A stretch of DNA of 64,000 bases, taken from the NCBI GenBank assembly GCA_049515795.1, contig JBEKTT010000016.1:8271-72270 (forward strand). Direction: 5' to 3'. The notes under the pieces were generated by a model. The model made no database searches. It was given only the letters and a program-made list of their open reading frames with translations, and was not told the origin of the DNA. Origin of the DNA: Syntrophobacteraceae bacterium (GTDB lineage Bacteria; Desulfobacterota; Syntrophobacteria; Syntrophobacterales; Syntrophobacteraceae). The position numbers and the translations under genes are program-made. Position 1 is the first letter of the stretch. Each line of letters begins with the position of its first letter. This document shows positions 13,624 to 19,622 of the stretch, one piece after another.

Positions 13624-14229
13624 ATGAACATTCTCGACTGGGTCCTGATCTGTGCGGGAGGTTTCTGGATGCTCAGGGGCCTTATGCGCGGCGCCATCTC
13701 TCAGATAATGGGAGTCGCCGGCATTTTAACAGGTTTTATTGTGGCCTCGTACCACTACCAGCCCGTGGGCTTTTTTATAACCAGCAAGTTTCCTTCTATT
13801 TCCGGTACCGCCGCCGGGCCCCTCAGCTTCATCCTGCTGTTTCTGTTAACTTGGTTCAGTATTGCGGTGGCGGGCTCCTGGGTTGTTAGAGTCGTACGCA
13901 GCGCCGGTCTAGGGTTTCTTGACCGGCTCTGGGGCGCGATGATCGGATTCGGCAAAGCGCTCCTTTTTGCGATTGTGACGATCTCTTTTTTGACGTTGTT
14001 TTCCTTTGGTGGCAAGTCGTCGCTCGTCGCAGAGTCAACGCTTGCGCCCAGAGTAAGGGAGGCCTCTCAATTCCTCTTCAAATTGGCGCCCGTAAAGGTT
14101 CAGGAGGAGTTTTCCAGAAAGCAGAAGGAGGTCCAGAAGCTGCTGACCGAACGAACATCGGCTCTGCTGAACTCCTTCTTTGGAAACGGTAATGATTCAA
14201 AGGAAAAAGGTGAAAGAAACAAAAACTGA
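13624..14229 (+). CDS. cvpA: CvpA-family membrane protein
   Basis: 201 aa with four hydrophobic segments. The N-terminus MNILDWVLI..GLMRG resembles colicin V production protein family members. Confidence 0.7.
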   Translation: MNILDWVLICAGGFWMLRGLMRGAISQIMGVAGILTGFIVASYHYQPVGFFITSKFPSISGTAAGPLSFILLFLLTWFSIAVAGSWVVRVVRSAGLGFLDRLWGAMIGFGKALLFAIVTISFLTLFSFGGKSSLVAESTLAPRVREASQFLFKLAPVKVQEEFSRKQKEVQKLLTERTSALLNSFFGNGNDSKEKGERNKN

Positions 14230-14896
14230 TCGCTGGAACGCGATAGAGGAAATCCTCCGGATAATCGAGCGTCTACGAAGTGAGACCGGTTGCCCCTGGG
14301 ACCGAAAGCAGACCCCTGAAACAATCCAGACCTACCTTGTTGAAGAATCCCACGAAGCCGCTGCGGCAGTGCGGGCGAAAAAAGTCGACGAGGTGGCAGA
14401 AGAACTCGGGGACGTCCTCTTTATGGCGTTTTTCCTCGTTTATTTATACGAGCAGCGGGGAGATTTCAGCCTGGAAGAAGTTTGCCGCAGAGTCAGTGAA
14501 AAAATGATCCGTAGGCATCCGCACGTTTTCGGTGAAACGAGCGTGAGTTCGGCCGAGGAGGTTAAAGATAACTGGGAAATGATAAAAGCCCAGGAGAAGC
14601 GCGCAAGCGGCAAAACTCAAACCGAACCCGTCCCGGACTCCCTCCCGGCCCTTATTCGCGCACATAGAATCCTTTCGCGCCTCTCGCAAAAAGATGATGC
14701 AAATTGGAACGATCTCCTGAAACAGGGGCGTGAATTCGCCGGGGAAAGTAAAGAGCTGGCGAGCAAGATCGAGTCCGGCCGGCTCGACTCTGAGGATGAT
14801 CTGGGCCGCCTCCTTGCTCGACTGGTTAATATCGCACGCCTTAAAGGTTACCGCGCCGAGGATATCCTCCATAATTTTCTGCGAAAACTCGAATAG
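14192..14896 (+). CDS. mazG: nucleoside triphosphate pyrophosphohydrolase MazG
   Basis: Motifs CPWDRKQT and EExxE (EESHEAAAAV..EELGDVLF). The ORF starts at 14180 and an alternative ATG lies at 14192. Confidence 0.85.
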   Translation: MIQRKKVKETKTDRWNAIEEILRIIERLRSETGCPWDRKQTPETIQTYLVEESHEAAAAVRAKKVDEVAEELGDVLFMAFFLVYLYEQRGDFSLEEVCRRVSEKMIRRHPHVFGETSVSSAEEVKDNWEMIKAQEKRASGKTQTEPVPDSLPALIRAHRILSRLSQKDDANWNDLLKQGREFAGESKELASKIESGRLDSEDDLGRLLARLVNIARLKGYRAEDILHNFLRKLE

Positions 14897-14910
14897 CCAA
14901 TGCGCGGGTC

Positions 14911-14950
14911 AAGGCCTCCCGCGCACGCCCCGTCTCGCGGGTGGGTGGGC
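14911..14950 (-). repeat. mosaic intergenic repeat, copy E (terminal module only)
   Basis: AAGGCCTCCCGC..GCCCCGTCTCGCGGGTGGGTGGGC matches the right-end module of copies A/B/C (26937-26976; reverse complement of 54281-54320). Confidence 0.8.
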
Positions 14951-15003
14951 GAAAAGTCCGGTTTTCGAAGGTTTGCCGGCTTGGAATTTGTGTGGAATTT
15001 ATC

Positions 15004-15034
15004 TTGACAAAGTGGTTGGGATGAAGTCTACTCT
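15004..15034 (+). promoter_or_regulatory. possible sigma-70 promoter for the leader/aroF-tyrA transcript
   Basis: TTGACA at 15004-15009 and TACTCT (TAnnnT) at 15029-15034. The 19-nt spacing is long, so this is tentative. Confidence 0.3.
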
Positions 15035-15053
15035 GGACCGGGTAGGAGATAAT

Positions 15054-15110
15054 ATGTTCACTATATCTTATTATTACGATTATTATAACCCCAGCGAAGG
15101 GAACGCTTAA
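15054..15110 (+). CDS. Tyr-rich leader peptide MFTISYYYDYYNPSEGNA
   Basis: AGGAG at 15044-15048 lies 5 nt before the ATG. The 18-codon ORF has 5 Tyr codons within 15069-15086. It is followed by a terminator and then the tyrosine-pathway genes. Confidence 0.6.
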   Translation: MFTISYYYDYYNPSEGNA

Positions 15111-15151
15111 GGTATGCTCGGGTCCTGAGAATTAAATTTGTTTGTTTTGAA

Positions 15152-15184
15152 GCCGTGAGCACCTGGGTGCTCACGGCTTTTTTT
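15152..15184 (+). terminator. intrinsic terminator (attenuator) upstream of aroF
   Basis: 11-bp stem GCCGTGAGCAC/GTGCTCACGGC with a CTGG loop, followed by T7 at 15178-15184. Confidence 0.8.
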
Positions 15185-15229
15185 GTATGCGATTGTTCCG
15201 AAATTGGGAAAATATGGGGGGAAATCGTC

Positions 15230-16243
15230 ATGATCATTGTAATGCGTCCGGATCACCGGGAAGAAGACCTGCTCAGAATAGTCCGGCGCCTCGAGGACAC
15301 GAACCTCCGGGTGCATATCTCCAAAGGCGAGCACAGGACCATTGTGGGTGCGATTGGAGATGAACGGGTTATAGCGGAGATCCCGATGGAGTCCTTTCCG
15401 GGAGTGGAGAAGGTGCTCCCCATCTTGAAACCGTACAAGCTGGTCAGCAGGGAATTCAAGCCTGAAAACACCGTGGTGAATATAAACGGCCTTGAGATCG
15501 GCGGCCCTCAGATCCAGGTTATTGCAGGGCCCTGTGCGGTCGAGAGCCGGGAAGTTCTCGAGGAAATAGCCGAGGAGATCGAGCCTGCCGGGGTTCATTT
15601 TTTGCGCGGAGGCGCTTTCAAACCACGCACTTCACCCTACGCGTTCCAGGGCTGGGGCGAAAAGGGGTTGAAGTTCCTTGCCGGAGTCCGCGAAAAAACC
15701 GGTATGAAGGTAGTTACCGAACTTATGGATCCAAGAGATACCGTGCTGGTTTGCAAGTATGCGGACATCGTCCAGATCGGTACTCGCAACATGCAAAATT
15801 TCAGGCTCCTCACAGAGGTTGGCAACATCGATAAACCGGTCATCCTGAAACGCGGCCTCTGCGCAACTATAAAGGAATTCCTCATGTCGGCCGAATACAT
15901 AATGGCGCAGGGGAACGAAAGGGTAATTCTGTGCGAAAGGGGAATACGCACATTCGAAACCGAAACCCGAAATACCCTCGATATCAGCGCAGTGCCGCTT
16001 CTGAAGCAACTCACACATCTTCCGGTAATCGTTGACCCGAGTCACGCGGTGGGGAGGGCAGACCTTGTGCCCGCCGTCTCGAGGGCGGCCGTTGCGGCCG
16101 GCGCCGACGGGCTCCTCGTTGAAGTGCACGTGCGTCCTGAGGAAGCAATGAGCGACGGTCCTCAATCTCTTCGCCCGCAGGTTTTTCTTTCTATGATCGA
16201 GGAGTGCCGCCGGGTCGCCGAAGCGATCGGCCGGTTTATGTGA
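15230..16243 (+). CDS. aroF: 3-deoxy-7-phosphoheptulonate (DAHP) synthase, type I-beta with N-terminal regulatory domain
   Basis: The ORF starts at 15155, with likely ATG 15230 after a G-rich RBS. The KDO8PS-like DAHPS core (GPCAVES, RGGAFKPRTSPY, DPSH) is preceded by a ~70-aa ferredoxin-like domain. Confidence 0.88.
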   Translation: MIIVMRPDHREEDLLRIVRRLEDTNLRVHISKGEHRTIVGAIGDERVIAEIPMESFPGVEKVLPILKPYKLVSREFKPENTVVNINGLEIGGPQIQVIAGPCAVESREVLEEIAEEIEPAGVHFLRGGAFKPRTSPYAFQGWGEKGLKFLAGVREKTGMKVVTELMDPRDTVLVCKYADIVQIGTRNMQNFRLLTEVGNIDKPVILKRGLCATIKEFLMSAEYIMAQGNERVILCERGIRTFETETRNTLDISAVPLLKQLTHLPVIVDPSHAVGRADLVPAVSRAAVAAGADGLLVEVHVRPEEAMSDGPQSLRPQVFLSMIEECRRVAEAIGRFM

Positions 16244-16265
16244 AAGAACACAGGCATACAGGTTA

Positions 16266-17198
16266 ATGGGTGAACAAAGTATGGATGGCCCTCACTTTTG
16301 CGGCCCAACCAACTCAAGCCGCCGGTGGAATAAGCGTTCCGTAATCGGGATAATCGGCGGGCAGGGGGAAATGGGTCGGCTTTTTTCAAAGTTCTTCAGC
16401 TCGCATGGTTTTCACGTCAATATTGCCGACTTGGGTACGCCGCTTACGCCCGAGCAGGCTGTAGGCGAATCAGATATAGTCATTTTTGCCCTGCCGCTTC
16501 ATAAGACCGTCGAGATAATCAGGAGACTCGTTCCGCATACCCGGCCGGGTCAGCTCCTGATGGACCTGACCAGCCTGAAGACCGCGCCCGTGAAAGAGAT
16601 GTTGCAATCCCCCGCCAGCGTCGTCGGGCTTCACCCGATGTTTGGAGGCCGAATATCGAGCTTTAACGGCCAGACTCTGGCCGCCTGTCCCGTTCGCATC
16701 GGCCAGGCCCAGTGGCGGAGGCTGCGCGCGCTTTTTACCTCAAGTGGCATCCGGGTCAAGGAATGCAGCCCGGAAGAACACGACAGGATGATGGGCATCA
16801 TACAGGTGCTTTTCCACATTACGACCATGCTCATCGGAAGGACCTTGAGAAAGCTCGGTGCAGACATAGACGAAACTATGAATTATACGAGCCCGAGCTA
16901 CCGCATCGAAATGAACCTCGTCGGGAGGATTTTCGCGCAAAGTCCGGAACTCTATGCCGCCATCACCCAGATGAATCCCAATACCGAAGAGATTCTTTCC
17001 GCTTTGAAGGATGGCCTGGAGGTCTATGAACAATTCTACCGTTCGGGAAACCTTGATGGGTTTATCGAGGATTTCGAGCTAAGCGCTCTGCATCTTGGCG
17101 ATTTCTGCTCAGATGCATACCGCGAAAGTTCGCAAATCCTGGACTTTTCGGTTGAACTGGCCAATCATAAGAGGAACTCCAGCGGTGAAAGGGGTTGA
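16266..17198 (+). CDS. tyrA: prephenate dehydrogenase
   Basis: Rossmann motif IGIIGGQGEMG and central HPMFG motif; 310 aa. Lies immediately after aroF. Confidence 0.82.
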   Translation: MGEQSMDGPHFCGPTNSSRRWNKRSVIGIIGGQGEMGRLFSKFFSSHGFHVNIADLGTPLTPEQAVGESDIVIFALPLHKTVEIIRRLVPHTRPGQLLMDLTSLKTAPVKEMLQSPASVVGLHPMFGGRISSFNGQTLAACPVRIGQAQWRRLRALFTSSGIRVKECSPEEHDRMMGIIQVLFHITTMLIGRTLRKLGADIDETMNYTSPSYRIEMNLVGRIFAQSPELYAAITQMNPNTEEILSALKDGLEVYEQFYRSGNLDGFIEDFELSALHLGDFCSDAYRESSQILDFSVELANHKRNSSGERG

Positions 17199-17438
17199 AG
17201 TTTTGTAGCGGATCAGCTCCAAGCGCTGACAAAAAGGTCTTGGATCATCATGTATACGGGTTTCTGGGGACTTCCTGAGAAACCGGACAAAAACCCTACC
17301 CCTTGATCCTTTTCAAACAAATCCCTCATAACCGGGACTGGGTGGAGGGATCCTTGGCAGGAAACGAGAATACCCGGGGACAGCATATGGTGTGACGGTA
17401 TTGTCGGACGGTCGCACGGCGGACGGGGAAGGGTGTGT

Positions 17439-18302
17439 ATGGAAAAGCATCTGTTGCTCACAGTCGCCGATGACGTCGGATCGATCTTTGAAGCTGATTT
17501 TATCGGTTCTTTCTTCAGGAATAAAGCGGAAGTCAGAGTCACTCTTTTTTCCGTCGCACCTAAATCATACGACGAGGGTGTCGATGAGAACGGTGGCGCA
17601 CCTGAGCCGAAAGTTCCAGGTGCTCATGTCCATAGGGATAAGTGGCAAAACGCGATCCATTTGAAACGCGATATCCTTATCAGGCTTGGTTTCCTTGATG
17701 ACCACATCACCGGCAAAGTGATCAGATCTCGCTACGGAACAATTGAGGATATCATCCTCGAAGGGAAAAAGGGTCTTTATGATGCGGTTATCCTTGCAAG
17801 ACACACCGTTGAACTCCTGGACCAGACCTTTCTGACAAGTGTGAGCAGAGAGATTTTGAACCACAAGATAGACTTCCCCGTGTGGATATGCAGACATCCT
17901 GAGATAGGGCGCAGAAACGTGTTGCTTTGTGTTGATGAAGATGAGGCCAGCATGCGTATTGCCGATCATGTCGGGTTCGTTTTGCAGGGAGAAACCCAGC
18001 ATAACATAACCCTCTTCCATGTTGATACGGGGGAAAGAGCAAATCCCCGGGATATACTGGACCGGGCAAGACAAAAGCTTATGGATTATGGAATCCCGGA
18101 AACGCAGATCAAAAACCTTATAGTCCAATCTCGCAGCGTCCCCAGGTCTATCCGGGAAGAGGCTGTGAGTGGAGCATATGCCGTTATTGCTGTTGGGCAC
18201 GACAGGGCGCAGCCAAAGGGCCTGAAGGAATGGCTTGTCGGCTCAATGTGTATGAAGGTTTTGGAGATGTTGAATAGGTGTGTTCTATGGGCGAGTCAGT
18301 GA
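17439..18302 (+). CDS. universal stress protein family (tandem USP domains), tentative
   Basis: Two ~140-aa halves each begin with a hydrophobic beta-strand (HLLLTVADD; NVLLCVDEDE), with YAVIAVGH near the C-terminus. Weak motif-level call. Confidence 0.5.
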   Translation: MEKHLLLTVADDVGSIFEADFIGSFFRNKAEVRVTLFSVAPKSYDEGVDENGGAPEPKVPGAHVHRDKWQNAIHLKRDILIRLGFLDDHITGKVIRSRYGTIEDIILEGKKGLYDAVILARHTVELLDQTFLTSVSREILNHKIDFPVWICRHPEIGRRNVLLCVDEDEASMRIADHVGFVLQGETQHNITLFHVDTGERANPRDILDRARQKLMDYGIPETQIKNLIVQSRSVPRSIREEAVSGAYAVIAVGHDRAQPKGLKEWLVGSMCMKVLEMLNRCVLWASQ

Positions 18303-18562: not shown

Positions 18563-19057
18563 ATGGGCAAAGTGACTCAAGTAGTTCATTACCTGACAGC
18601 CGATGAAGTAATGGAGAGGATGAAGCAGACAGTTGGTTTCTGGAGGGTTCAGAAGTGGCTTGTAATACTCAATGCCACTATTGACCCTCGTCCCGCCAAG
18701 CTTGTTGCCTTACACACCGGACTGGCGGAACAAACGGTTCATAACCTTGTCTCAAGCTATAATCGGCATGGGCCAAAAGTCATGGAGGGGCCGGGGAAAG
18801 GAGGGCGACGAAGAGCCTATCGCAGTTTAGATGATGAGATGGTTTTTCTGGAGCCCTTCTTCAAAAAGGCTCTTATCGGACAGATTGCAACTGTTGCCGA
18901 GATCAAAATGGCATGGGAGAAAGTCTTGGGGCGCAAAGTCCATAAGACCACGGTTTATCGATTACTCGAACGACACGAATGGCGCAAGGTAGCTCCGCGA
19001 CCTTTCCATGAGCAGGCCAAAGCAGAGGAGCAAGAGGCTTTTAAAAAAACTCCCTGA
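18563..19057 (+). CDS. IS630-family transposase, N-terminal HTH part (orfA)
   Basis: 164-aa ORF inside the IS. It ends just after the A7 run at 19043-19049. Confidence 0.8.
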   Translation: MGKVTQVVHYLTADEVMERMKQTVGFWRVQKWLVILNATIDPRPAKLVALHTGLAEQTVHNLVSSYNRHGPKVMEGPGKGGRRRAYRSLDDEMVFLEPFFKKALIGQIATVAEIKMAWEKVLGRKVHKTTVYRLLERHEWRKVAPRPFHEQAKAEEQEAFKKTP

Positions 19058-19622
19058 ACTGGTGGCGGAAAGACTTGCGCAAAGGAATAGAGGCGATCAC
19101 CGACCGGTTCTGATTTTCGCCCAGGATGAGGCCAGGTTCGGCAGAATAAGCATCACCAGGAAGTCATGGGCGCCCGCTGGCATTAGACCAAGATCGCCCC
19201 GGCAAGTTATCAGGAAATATGTTTATGCCTACTCGGCGGTATGCCCTGCAACGGGCAAGATGACATCTTTGATCTTGCCGAAAGCCAATTCAGAGATGAT
19301 GAGCCTTTTCCTGCAGCAAGTCTCAAGCGATTTTGCGGACTATTTCATTATCATGCTTGTTGATCGTGCAGGCTGGCATGTATCAGCCAGATTAAAAATC
19401 CCTGAAAATATACGGCTAATTCCCATTCCCTCTCACAGTCCCGAGTTGAATCCTACGGAACATGTTTGGGACGAATTGAGGGAGAAACACTTCCCGAACT
19501 TGGCACTAAAAACCCTTGATGATGTCGAGGACAAGCTTTGTGACGGTCTCAATGCGATGGCAGATGACCCCGAACGGCTCCGGAGTTTAACATATTTTCC
19601 TTATTTACATATTACCGTTTAG
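19008..19622 (+). CDS. IS630-family transposase, DDE catalytic part (orfB)
   Basis: DDE-type motifs (IFAQDEARFG; MLVDRAGWH; SPELNPTEHVWDELRE). Lies in the +1 frame relative to orfA and overlaps it across the A7 run. Confidence 0.85.
   Translation: MSRPKQRSKRLLKKLPELVAERLAQRNRGDHRPVLIFAQDEARFGRISITRKSWAPAGIRPRSPRQVIRKYVYAYSAVCPATGKMTSLILPKANSEMMSLFLQQVSSDFADYFIIMLVDRAGWHVSARLKIPENIRLIPIPSHSPELNPTEHVWDELREKHFPNLALKTLDDVEDKLCDGLNAMADDPERLRSLTYFPYLHITV

Follow-up and report, generated by a model that had tools for sequence, protein, structure and literature searches.

What does a short open reading frame (ORF) crowded with tyrosine codons do between a promoter and a terminator, directly ahead of an operon with a tyrosine-branch enzyme? 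The question is raised by a 64,000-nt stretch of DNA from a Syntrophobacteraceae bacterium (GenBank assembly GCA_049515795.1, contig JBEKTT010000016.1, positions 8,271 to 72,270 of the forward strand), called here the window, to which all coordinates refer. At position 15054 an 18-codon leader ORF begins, followed by a hairpin with a T-run and then by aroF, encoding a 3-deoxy-D-arabino-heptulosonate-7-phosphate (DAHP) synthase (DAHPS), and tyrA, encoding prephenate dehydrogenase. Leader-peptide attenuation is a textbook mechanism described for Trp, Phe, His, Leu, Thr and Ile/Val, and an initial annotation of the window had proposed a tyrosine-sensing counterpart at this site. The element is very likely a classical ribosome-mediated leader-peptide attenuator reading the supply of Tyr-tRNA(Tyr) and controlling the aroF-tyrA operon. 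Three lines of sequence-based evidence support this proposal, namely recurrence in about 52 related genomes, covariation of two mutually exclusive helices, and folds computed with the ribosome placed at defined codons.

Anatomy of the leader region

The region opens with a perfect consensus -35 hexamer, TTGACA (15004-15009, plus strand), a feature absent from the initial annotation. After a 17-nt spacer it is followed by the -10-like hexamer TCTACT (15027-15032, plus strand), which in close relatives is mostly TCTATT at equal spacing. An exact TTGACA lies 47-75 nt 5' of the leader ATG in 43 of the 52 leaders of the clade described below. By these hexamers the leader has a conserved promoter of the sigma-70 type, with transcription predicted to start at about 15039-15042.

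The leader ORF (MFTISYYYDYYNPSEGNA*, 15054-15110, plus strand) has its own Shine-Dalgarno (SD) sequence, AGGAG, at 15044-15048 on the same strand, 5 nt before the ATG at 15054, and ends with the UAA at 15108-15110. Its codons read ATG TTC ACT ATA TCT TAT TAT TAC GAT TAT TAT AAC CCC AGC GAA GGG AAC GCT TAA, so that the run TAT TAT TAC GAT TAT TAT (15069-15086, plus strand) holds five Tyr codons in six, while Tyr accounts for 2.6% of codons across the long ORFs of the window. The stop codon is followed, after 41 nt, by a hairpin with the core GCCGTGAGCAC (15152-15162), the loop CTGG (15163-15166), the complementary arm GTGCTCACGGC (15167-15177) and seven T residues (15178-15184). The full terminator stem comprises 14 pairs (15149-15180). 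The DAHPS gene (15230-16243, plus strand) starts 45 nt past the T-run, and its product is an aroF-type, type I-beta enzyme with an N-terminal ferredoxin-like regulatory domain (Pfam DAHP_synth_1, 2e-78; DAHP_snth_FXD, 8e-22). It is followed by tyrA (16266-17198, plus strand; Pfam PDH_N and PDH_C). The positions of the SD, the ATG, the leader ORF, the Tyr codons, the hairpin and the DAHPS start in the initial annotation proved exact on direct reading, and Pfam confirmed both enzyme identities.

In the terms used for attenuators, four segments, all on the plus strand, can be laid out on the leader RNA. The candidate segment 1 (15038-15059) spans the mRNA 5' end, the SD and the start codon, and includes CCGGGUA (15038-15044) and UGUUC (15055-15059). 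Segment 2 (15107-15123, UUAAGGUAUGCUCGGGU) overlaps the leader stop codon and would be the 5' strand of the antiterminator, pairing with 15152-15164. An A/U-rich spacer (15124-15148), unstructured in the folds, separates it from segment 3 (15149-15166, GAAGCCGUGAGCAC CUGG), the terminator 5' arm plus loop, which is common to terminator and antiterminator. Segment 4 (15167-15184) consists of the terminator 3' arm (15167-15180) and the T-run, as assigned from fold energy and from pairing over 49 sequences.

The terminator folds with -25.3 kcal/mol (z = -4.1), and none of 200 shuffled sequences folded as well. Only five strong terminator-like sites were found on both strands of the window. In a search of both strands for SD-preceded ORFs of 8-40 codons, the leader was the sole one that combined at least five identical residues in seven with a terminator within 120 nt. 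The co-occurrence of leader and terminator is beyond chance. The same window contains an F-rich mini-ORF, MFMFFLFK (58587-58561, minus strand), with an SD-like sequence before it, which was considered as a Phe leader and dismissed as incidental, having neither a terminator nor a relevant downstream gene.

Conservation of the leader, the terminator and the operon

A scan with one genome per species gave 80 loci encoding relatives of the window DAHPS. In 53 of them, with 75-99% DAHPS identity, the source was a metagenome-assembled genome (MAG) of Syntrophobacteraceae or Syntrophobacterales, mostly from peat, bog or reactor; these loci are referred to as the clade. The pair of Tyr-run upstream ORF and terminator first noted in the window recurs in about 52 related genomes. 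In all 52 cases with enough upstream sequence (51 loci and the window), the leader contains a short ORF that has its own SD and carries a Tyr run, for example MHTGFYYYYYFYPL, MGYYRYYYYYGF and MFTKYYRYYYYSEIPGSAGDM, and 3' of it lies a terminator with the clade consensus AAGCCGTGAGCGCC...GGCGCTCACGGCTTTTTT. The SD, as AGGAGAG, and the ATG are kept in the 49 aligned leaders (alignment A1). When a covariance model was built from 49 distinct leaders, it detected a single copy in each clade locus, in every case upstream of the DAHPS gene, and it also recovered five loci that had been left out of its construction. In the window its only match is at 15042-15188, and no further copies that would form a regulon were detected with it in the window or in the locus flanks.

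Three leader-aroF(-tyrA) copies with their own Tyr-run leaders (L030, L048 and L050) were observed in a single MAG (MFD02979.bin.2.138), two of them sharing a contig. True paralogy or a mixed bin would account for this.

The composition of the runs is strongly biased. Over the 52 leaders, run positions are 77% Tyr, 9% Phe and less than 1% Trp; among the aromatic residues alone, 284 Y, 33 F and 3 W were counted, which makes Tyr 89%. Within the runs the two Tyr codons interchange (TAT:TAC, 73:27), and the leader residues outside the run diverge freely across the clade. Together, codon interchange and divergent flanks indicate that selection acts on decoding, and not on a nucleotide motif or a peptide product.

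This bears on the proposal that a trans-acting factor reads the tract or the hairpin, be it a TRAP- or PyrR-type protein on UAU repeats, an uncharged tRNA(Tyr) in a T-box-like manner, or a TyrR-like repressor. There are precedents, since T-boxes control tyrosine genes in Firmicutes (PMC1262725) and TyrR acts on aroF-tyrA in E. coli, and UAU/UAC repeats could in principle form a protein-binding array. In this clade, however, an SD and an in-frame ATG always precede the tract, and a stop codon near segment 2 closes it; TAT and TAC are swapped, and interruptions are whole codons, which is a signature of decoding. Comparison of positions 14000-18000 with all 4227 families of Rfam 15 (cmscan, E<=10) returned neither a T-box nor any other match in 15000-15230, but only four chance-level matches, all inside coding sequence. 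TyrR boxes (TGTAAA-N6-TTTACA, up to 3 mismatches) occur 15 times in the window, where 15.1 are expected, with none in 14900-15230 and thus none near the promoter. A trans-acting reader is accordingly a very unlikely explanation.

The clade leaders have a constant geometry. Their run occupies +15 to +38, a conserved GGTATGC block follows at about +56 to +60, and from there it is about 38 nt to the terminator arm, a distance that the window shares. The stop codon, on the other hand, moves from 14-16 nt before the GGTATGC block to as far as 18 nt after it. The constancy of the block despite the wandering stop codon argues that it is conserved as RNA.

These same data speak against a nascent peptide (aromatic run plus Pro) acting as an arrest peptide for free tyrosine, as TnaC does for Trp. 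Arrest peptides typically contain Pro, and a Pro codon stands almost always after the run, in the mixed-aromatic family described below as well. However, length and sequence are not conserved beyond the run, the distance of the stop codon from the RNA elements varies by more than 30 nt, and ligand-induced arrest would switch a biosynthetic operon on at high tyrosine, which is the wrong logic. Peptide-mediated arrest is therefore highly improbable. As for the Pro codon itself (CCC; alignment A1 columns 91-94, 15089-15092 in the window), it is found directly after the aromatic run in Tyr-type and mixed-aromatic leaders alike (..YP, ..SP, ..AP), and it may be kept either for its pairing with the GGG of segment 2 in the RNA or for the slow chemistry of peptidyl-Pro.

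The gene order separates a constant core from variable neighbours. In 52 of the 53 clade loci tyrA directly follows the DAHPS gene, and in the last one the contig ends before it, while mazG is upstream in only 21 of the 53 and conservation of the Usp gene was seen nowhere. What the clade conserves is thus a unit of promoter, leader, terminator, aroF and tyrA. This weighs on the reading in which the elements are non-regulatory, that is, in which the terminator is constitutive or leaky, or belongs to mazG, and the small ORF is incidental or independent (a micropeptide or a (TAT)n repeat). In its favour, mazG does lie upstream on the same strand, and the antiterminator of the window is thermodynamically unexceptional, as detailed below. 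Against it, promoter, leader and terminator always accompany aroF-tyrA whether or not mazG is present, a conserved promoter lies between mazG and the leader, and a micropeptide would not be expected to leave the sequence outside the run unconserved. In addition, the alternative helix covaries, and there would be no sense in placing a strong unregulated terminator before an essential biosynthetic operon. Assignment of the terminator to the end of mazG was rejected on the grounds of the intervening conserved promoter and the variable upstream synteny, and the non-regulatory reading as a whole has very little probability left.

Covariation of the antiterminator and the terminator

Both helices required by an attenuator were evaluated on the 49 aligned sequences. 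In the terminator 93% of alignment cells are paired, and compensatory changes occur, among them AU/GC at columns 173/192 and GC/AU at 176/186; its covariation score is 0.243, whereas sliding the partner strand gives at most 0.115. In the window, the antiterminator runs from A15110-U15164 down to U15123.G15152, with 12 pairs and two bulges, and an energy of -13.8 to -14.4 kcal/mol. It was tested as a single register of 17 pairs (alignment columns 111-127 with 166-182), where pairing amounts to 74%, compared with 25-57% in slid controls. Its covariation score of 0.239 (slid controls, at most 0.166) equals that of the terminator. Forty alignment cells were changed on both sides, compared with 16.8 in shuffles, and none of 500 shuffles reached the observed value.

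The individual pairs illustrate the exchange of partners: CG 21, GC 13 and AU 3 at 113/180; AU 18, GC 13 and GU 12 at 114/179; and GC 32, GU 11 and AU 6 at 116/177, which is paired in all 49 sequences. Most informative are the pairs between the bases immediately 5' of GGUAU and apical and loop bases of the terminator. Since these apical and loop bases have no partner within the terminator and nevertheless covary with the block, they are a specific argument for the alternative fold. Furthermore, segment 2 pairs better with the arm of its own locus than with foreign arms (interaction -1.1 kcal/mol), a value that none of 10,000 re-pairings reached. The antiterminator drawn by eye in the initial annotation (15111-15122 with 15153-15163) is essentially the pairing that covaries across the 49 sequences. 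RNAalifold on the full alignment gave the terminator only; this is the expected ground state and is no evidence against the alternative fold.

Ribosome position and the choice of fold

The nascent RNA was folded as far as the terminator loop for 51 leaders (50 loci and the window), masking an assumed standard ribosome footprint of -15 to +12 nt. Capture of the terminator arm was scored when the GGUAUGC block paired with at least 7 bases of the 5' arm. When the first Tyr codon occupied the A site, the arm was captured by segment 2 in 38 of the 51 leaders (mean 7.9 bases), whereas with the ribosome on the stop codon this was the case in only 4 (mean 1.6 bases). For the window, the antiterminator is the minimum free energy (MFE) structure with the ribosome stalled or absent, and is gone with the ribosome on the UAA. 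The masking logic advanced at the outset, in which a ribosome reaching the stop would hide segment 2 and one stalled on the Tyr codons would leave it free, is thus reproduced by the constrained folds.

Folds without a ribosome and folds with it at the last Tyr codon gave intermediate values (21-22 of 51 leaders), and these values led the search to the SD/AUG region as a competing partner. In most relatives the block can indeed pair with the SD/AUG region of the leader, as in AUGCAUACC:GGUAUGCAU, or in AGAGCAUAU:GUAUGCUCU together with GAGCGGC:GCCGCUU. The first of these pairings accounts for the frequent MHT start of the leaders. This 1:2 helix, which occurs in two registers and often has -20 to -29 kcal/mol in relatives, beats shuffles at p<=0.05 in 21 of the 51 leaders, where about 2.5 are expected. 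The version of the window, with 6 of 9 pairs in register I, is weak: CCGGGUA (15038-15044) pairs with UGCUCGG (15115-15121) and UGUUC (15055-15059) with GAACG (15101-15105), with -14.4 kcal/mol and p = 0.04, and the pairing belongs to the MFE structure. The MFE structure of the window also contains a local hairpin (15088-15096 with 15104-15113), which is 65% paired and shows no covariation.

A different pausing or 1:2 structure had been proposed initially, between CCCAGC (15090-15095) and 15116-15122. Support for it is weak: it is 59% paired compared with 27-45% in slid controls, the pairing is mostly CCC:GGG, and in most relatives the block has another partner. The absence of covariation in the SD/AUG-region helix can be attributed to a partner that is nearly invariant. 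The model is weakest in its 1:2 element.

Taken together, the following sequence of events is proposed. Transcription would start from the promoter with TTGACA at 15004-15009, and a ribosome would load on the 18-codon leader. When tyrosine is ample, it would run to the UAA (15108-15110), its footprint lying over segment 2 (15107-15123); with segment 2 covered, the 5' arm (15149-15162) would pair with the 3' arm (15167-15180), and transcription would end at the U7 tract (15178-15184). When charged tRNA(Tyr) is scarce, the ribosome would stall on the five Tyr codons (15069-15086) and leave segment 2 exposed, which would then pair with the 5' arm and loop (15152-15164) before the 3' arm is synthesized, so that no terminator would form and aroF-tyrA would be transcribed. 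In most relatives, an untranslated leader would be held in the terminating state by the additional helix that joins the SD/AUG region to segment 2; this helix is weak in the window.

Several points weigh against this proposal. The antiterminator of the window is no more stable than that of shuffled sequence (z = +0.65), and the raw duplex energy of the arm with the upstream region has a mean z of about 0 in mononucleotide shuffles, which is uninformative because a GC-rich arm reaches about -11 kcal/mol almost anywhere. As the window energy is unexceptional and duplex energies do not discriminate, support for the antiterminator is comparative. The loci compared are related by descent, so that the shuffle statistics overstate independence and significance, and the sequences come nearly all from MAGs. 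Of the 17 consensus pairs of the antiterminator, 3 are rarely in register, and the window version requires two bulges. A ribosome at the last Tyr codon leads to the antiterminator in only 21 of the 51 leaders. The 1:2 element is poorly defined: three candidates were evaluated as fixed consensus helices, and none covaries. In addition, control of the first common aromatic step by Tyr only implies other DAHPS isozymes, none of which was found in the window, and the link between tyrA and the Tyr run comes from essentially one clade.

Mixed aromatic leaders and the probable specificity for tyrosine

Among the loci outside the clade, the anammox planctomycete Ca. Subterrananammoxibius (L074:2847-2989) has a Tyr/Phe leader ending in ...LSYYYPFNYFPGGGRS*, whose stop codon falls within a block that pairs with the terminator 5' arm at -20.9 kcal/mol. 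Its DAHPS gene starts 20 nt past the T-run, and the Syntrophobacter covariance model scores it with 42 bits. A metagenome scan seeded with this enzyme gave 80 diverse DAHPS loci, relatives with up to 64% identity, 69 of which had enough upstream sequence.

A mixed Phe/Tyr/Trp leader precedes 19 of these 69 metagenomic type I-beta DAHPS genes (for example, MFRYFYFYFAPLKGG and MATFAFRFWFFFFSPAAWDLG), with a very strong terminator after 18 of the 19. The leaders lie at L082:239-286, L084:1330-1398, L085:1276-1362, L087:1289-1333, L090:1250-1333, L093:1250-1324, L094:1285-1392, L103:305-373, L114:342-395, L118:822-932, L127:1292-1357, L130:204-344, L135:597-674, L139:1265-1342, L141:1292-1369, L143:126-200 and L148:1212-1292, these being the 17 whose coordinates were examined in detail, and at L086 and L138. 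Counting their aromatic residues gives F 63, Y 28 and W 19 (57% Phe, 25% Tyr, 17% Trp), and six of the leaders match the Syntrophobacter covariance model at E<=1e-3. They resemble the window in the order of run, Pro, G-rich block, spacer, strong terminator and DAHPS gene, but differ in their Tyr content (25% versus 89%) and in preceding a stand-alone DAHPS gene: tblastn found no tyrA downstream of the 19 mixed-leader loci or of the planctomycete locus. This search replaced the next-ORF calls downstream of the metagenomic DAHPS genes, which were discarded as antisense artefacts.

Tyr-run leaders are thus always found before aroF-tyrA, while the mixed and planctomycete leaders have no tyrA downstream, and this split in operon content supports specificity for Tyr. 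It also bears on the alternative that the clade element is a real attenuator of multivalent specificity, sensing aromatic amino acids in general (Tyr plus Phe). Phe does occupy 9% of the run positions in the clade, with many leaders of the form FYYY.YFY; the related metagenomic DAHPS leaders mix F, Y and W; and DAHPS feeds all three aromatic branches. Moreover, the F-Y-F leader of Corynebacterium aroR is reported to answer to Phe and not to Tyr (PMC11802643). However, the run of the window, YYYDYY, contains neither Phe nor Trp, Tyr makes up 89% of the run aromatics in the clade compared with 25% in the mixed family, and the second gene of the operon encodes a Tyr-branch enzyme in 52 of the 53 clade loci, the contig of the remaining one ending first. 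General aromatic sensing is, on balance, unlikely, although it is the least improbable of the alternatives considered.

The Tyr-run element of the clade looks like a Tyr-specialised branch of a larger family of aromatic leaders in which codon content would follow operon content, a correlation that comes from few independent lineages.

A further feature distinguishes part of the clade. In 10-11 divergent loci (L030, L036, L038, L039, L042, L043, L044, L048, L050 and L062 among them), a second terminator lies about 30 nt after the first and 52-99 nt before the DAHPS ATG; it is absent from the window. Its 5' arm (GGCCGUGGG) is complementary to the 3' arm of the first terminator over 10 contiguous pairs (-19 to -22 kcal/mol), with covariation between the two arms (CCCGCGGC/GCCGCGGG versus CCCACGGC/GCCGUGGG). 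This suggests a relay in which the 2:3 helix would free segment 4, the 4:5 helix would form and 5:6 would be blocked, so that one leader could govern two terminators.

More broadly, these leaders may represent a broad and essentially uncatalogued superfamily on type I-beta DAHPS genes, retuned from mixed to near-pure Tyr where tyrA joined, with some members having gained a second terminator through the 4:5 relay. We regard this wider reading as plausible and put it somewhat below an even chance. Its members appear to be spread over Syntrophobacterales, the anammox planctomycete and many uncultured soil and sediment bacteria.

In two Gemmatimonadota loci (L066 and L073), a shared short ORF, MI(H/R)..Y....Y.YATR..GR.RRRLR*, with spaced Tyr residues was observed about 100-220 nt before the DAHPS start. 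A GC-rich terminator follows it in L066, and the corresponding stretch of L073 is masked by N. This ORF may be another kind of DAHPS leader.

Neighbouring genes in the window

Upstream of the leader, a MazG-family gene (Pfam) on the same strand ends at 14896. Directly after its stop codon lies a GC-rich inverted repeat, TGCGCGGG / CCCGCGCA (14901-14925), with a 9-nt loop and no T-run, which may be an mRNA-end or stabilising hairpin for mazG. A Usp-family gene and an IS630-type transposase are located downstream of aroF-tyrA. The latter corresponds to two overlapping plus-strand ORFs (18563-19622), about 1.4 kb 3' of tyrA, with winged-HTH (HTH_33) and DDE_3 domains, which by their domain content are an IS630-family transposase split across two frames.

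Implications

If the proposed mechanism is true, a Tyr-run attenuator would fill a gap, given that tyrosine control was found catalogued only as TyrR in enterobacteria and as T-boxes in Firmicutes, and that aroR, the one characterised DAHPS leader, is reported to be unresponsive to Tyr. It would also show how aromatic biosynthesis is controlled in poorly studied syntrophic, peat-dwelling Deltaproteobacteria, and, at about 150 nt, would offer a small genetic part that responds to tyrosine. The roughly 50 natural variants with clear covariation are material for studying how ribosome position selects between RNA folds. The mixed Phe/Tyr/Trp leaders on related DAHPS genes suggest a larger family missing from RNA-family databases, and, should the superfamily reading hold, it would be a natural example of attenuator specificity evolving after operon content.

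Comparison with known systems

No description of a tyrosine-type leader-peptide attenuator was found in the literature searched, nor any paper combining Syntrophobacter with attenuation and leader peptide, and a delta-proteobacterial regulon reconstruction makes no mention of aromatic attenuation. In a comparative survey, RNA-level control of tyrosine genes is by T-boxes only (PMC1262725). Those T-boxes of Firmicutes resemble the present system in reading the charging of tRNA(Tyr) through a choice between terminator and antiterminator, but the window has no T-box match and sensing here would use a translating ribosome.

E. coli aroF-tyrA is the closest parallel in gene content, with a Tyr-branch enzyme and a DAHPS isozyme switched by tyrosine status; it differs in being repressed by TyrR, for which no box was found here. 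Attenuation-like control of that operon was hypothesised by Camakaris et al. (1980), as cited in two later papers (PMC2659441, PMC8632094).

Two leaders upstream of aroF have been described or predicted in other bacteria. In Corynebacterium glutamicum, the aroR leader (Neshat et al. 2014) carries a Phe-Tyr-Phe motif and responds to Phe limitation, Tyr availability being reported as without effect (PMC11802643, PMC4046766). Like the window element, it is a leader-peptide attenuator before a DAHPS gene with an aromatic motif that includes Tyr; by its published description, it differs in having only Phe-Tyr-Phe and in belonging to an unrelated lineage, whereas the clade studied here has 5-7 Tyr codons and tyrA in the operon. 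In Acholeplasma, uORFC-13-1 upstream of aroF is a predicted upstream ORF with a terminator and a U-run encoding Phe, and is limited to Acholeplasma and environmental sequences (PMC8632094). Upstream ORF, terminator, DAHPS gene and aromatic codons are common to both systems, but its U-run codes for Phe and its published description includes neither a Tyr run nor linkage to tyrA. To our knowledge, the attenuation idea of Camakaris and co-workers for the E. coli operon was never tied to a leader peptide.

The closest mechanistic relatives are E. coli pheL-pheA and trpL-trpEDCBA, together with hisL, leuL, thrL and ilvL. They share with the window a promoter, an SD, an ORF with regulatory codons and its stop next to segment 2, as well as mutually exclusive 2:3 and 3:4 helices, a U-tract and a matching biosynthetic operon. 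The energies, near -14 kcal/mol for the antiterminator and near -25 kcal/mol for the terminator, are of similar order to those of E. coli trp. Unlike trpL and pheL, the element described here uses the Tyr codon, belongs to the Syntrophobacterales and has no Rfam similarity, and while segment 1 of the trpL/pheL type lies around the regulatory codons, in most relatives of the window it is the SD/AUG region of the leader. The element is therefore a known mechanism with a new regulatory amino acid, lineage and sequence family, and an extension of the textbook rather than a new principle.

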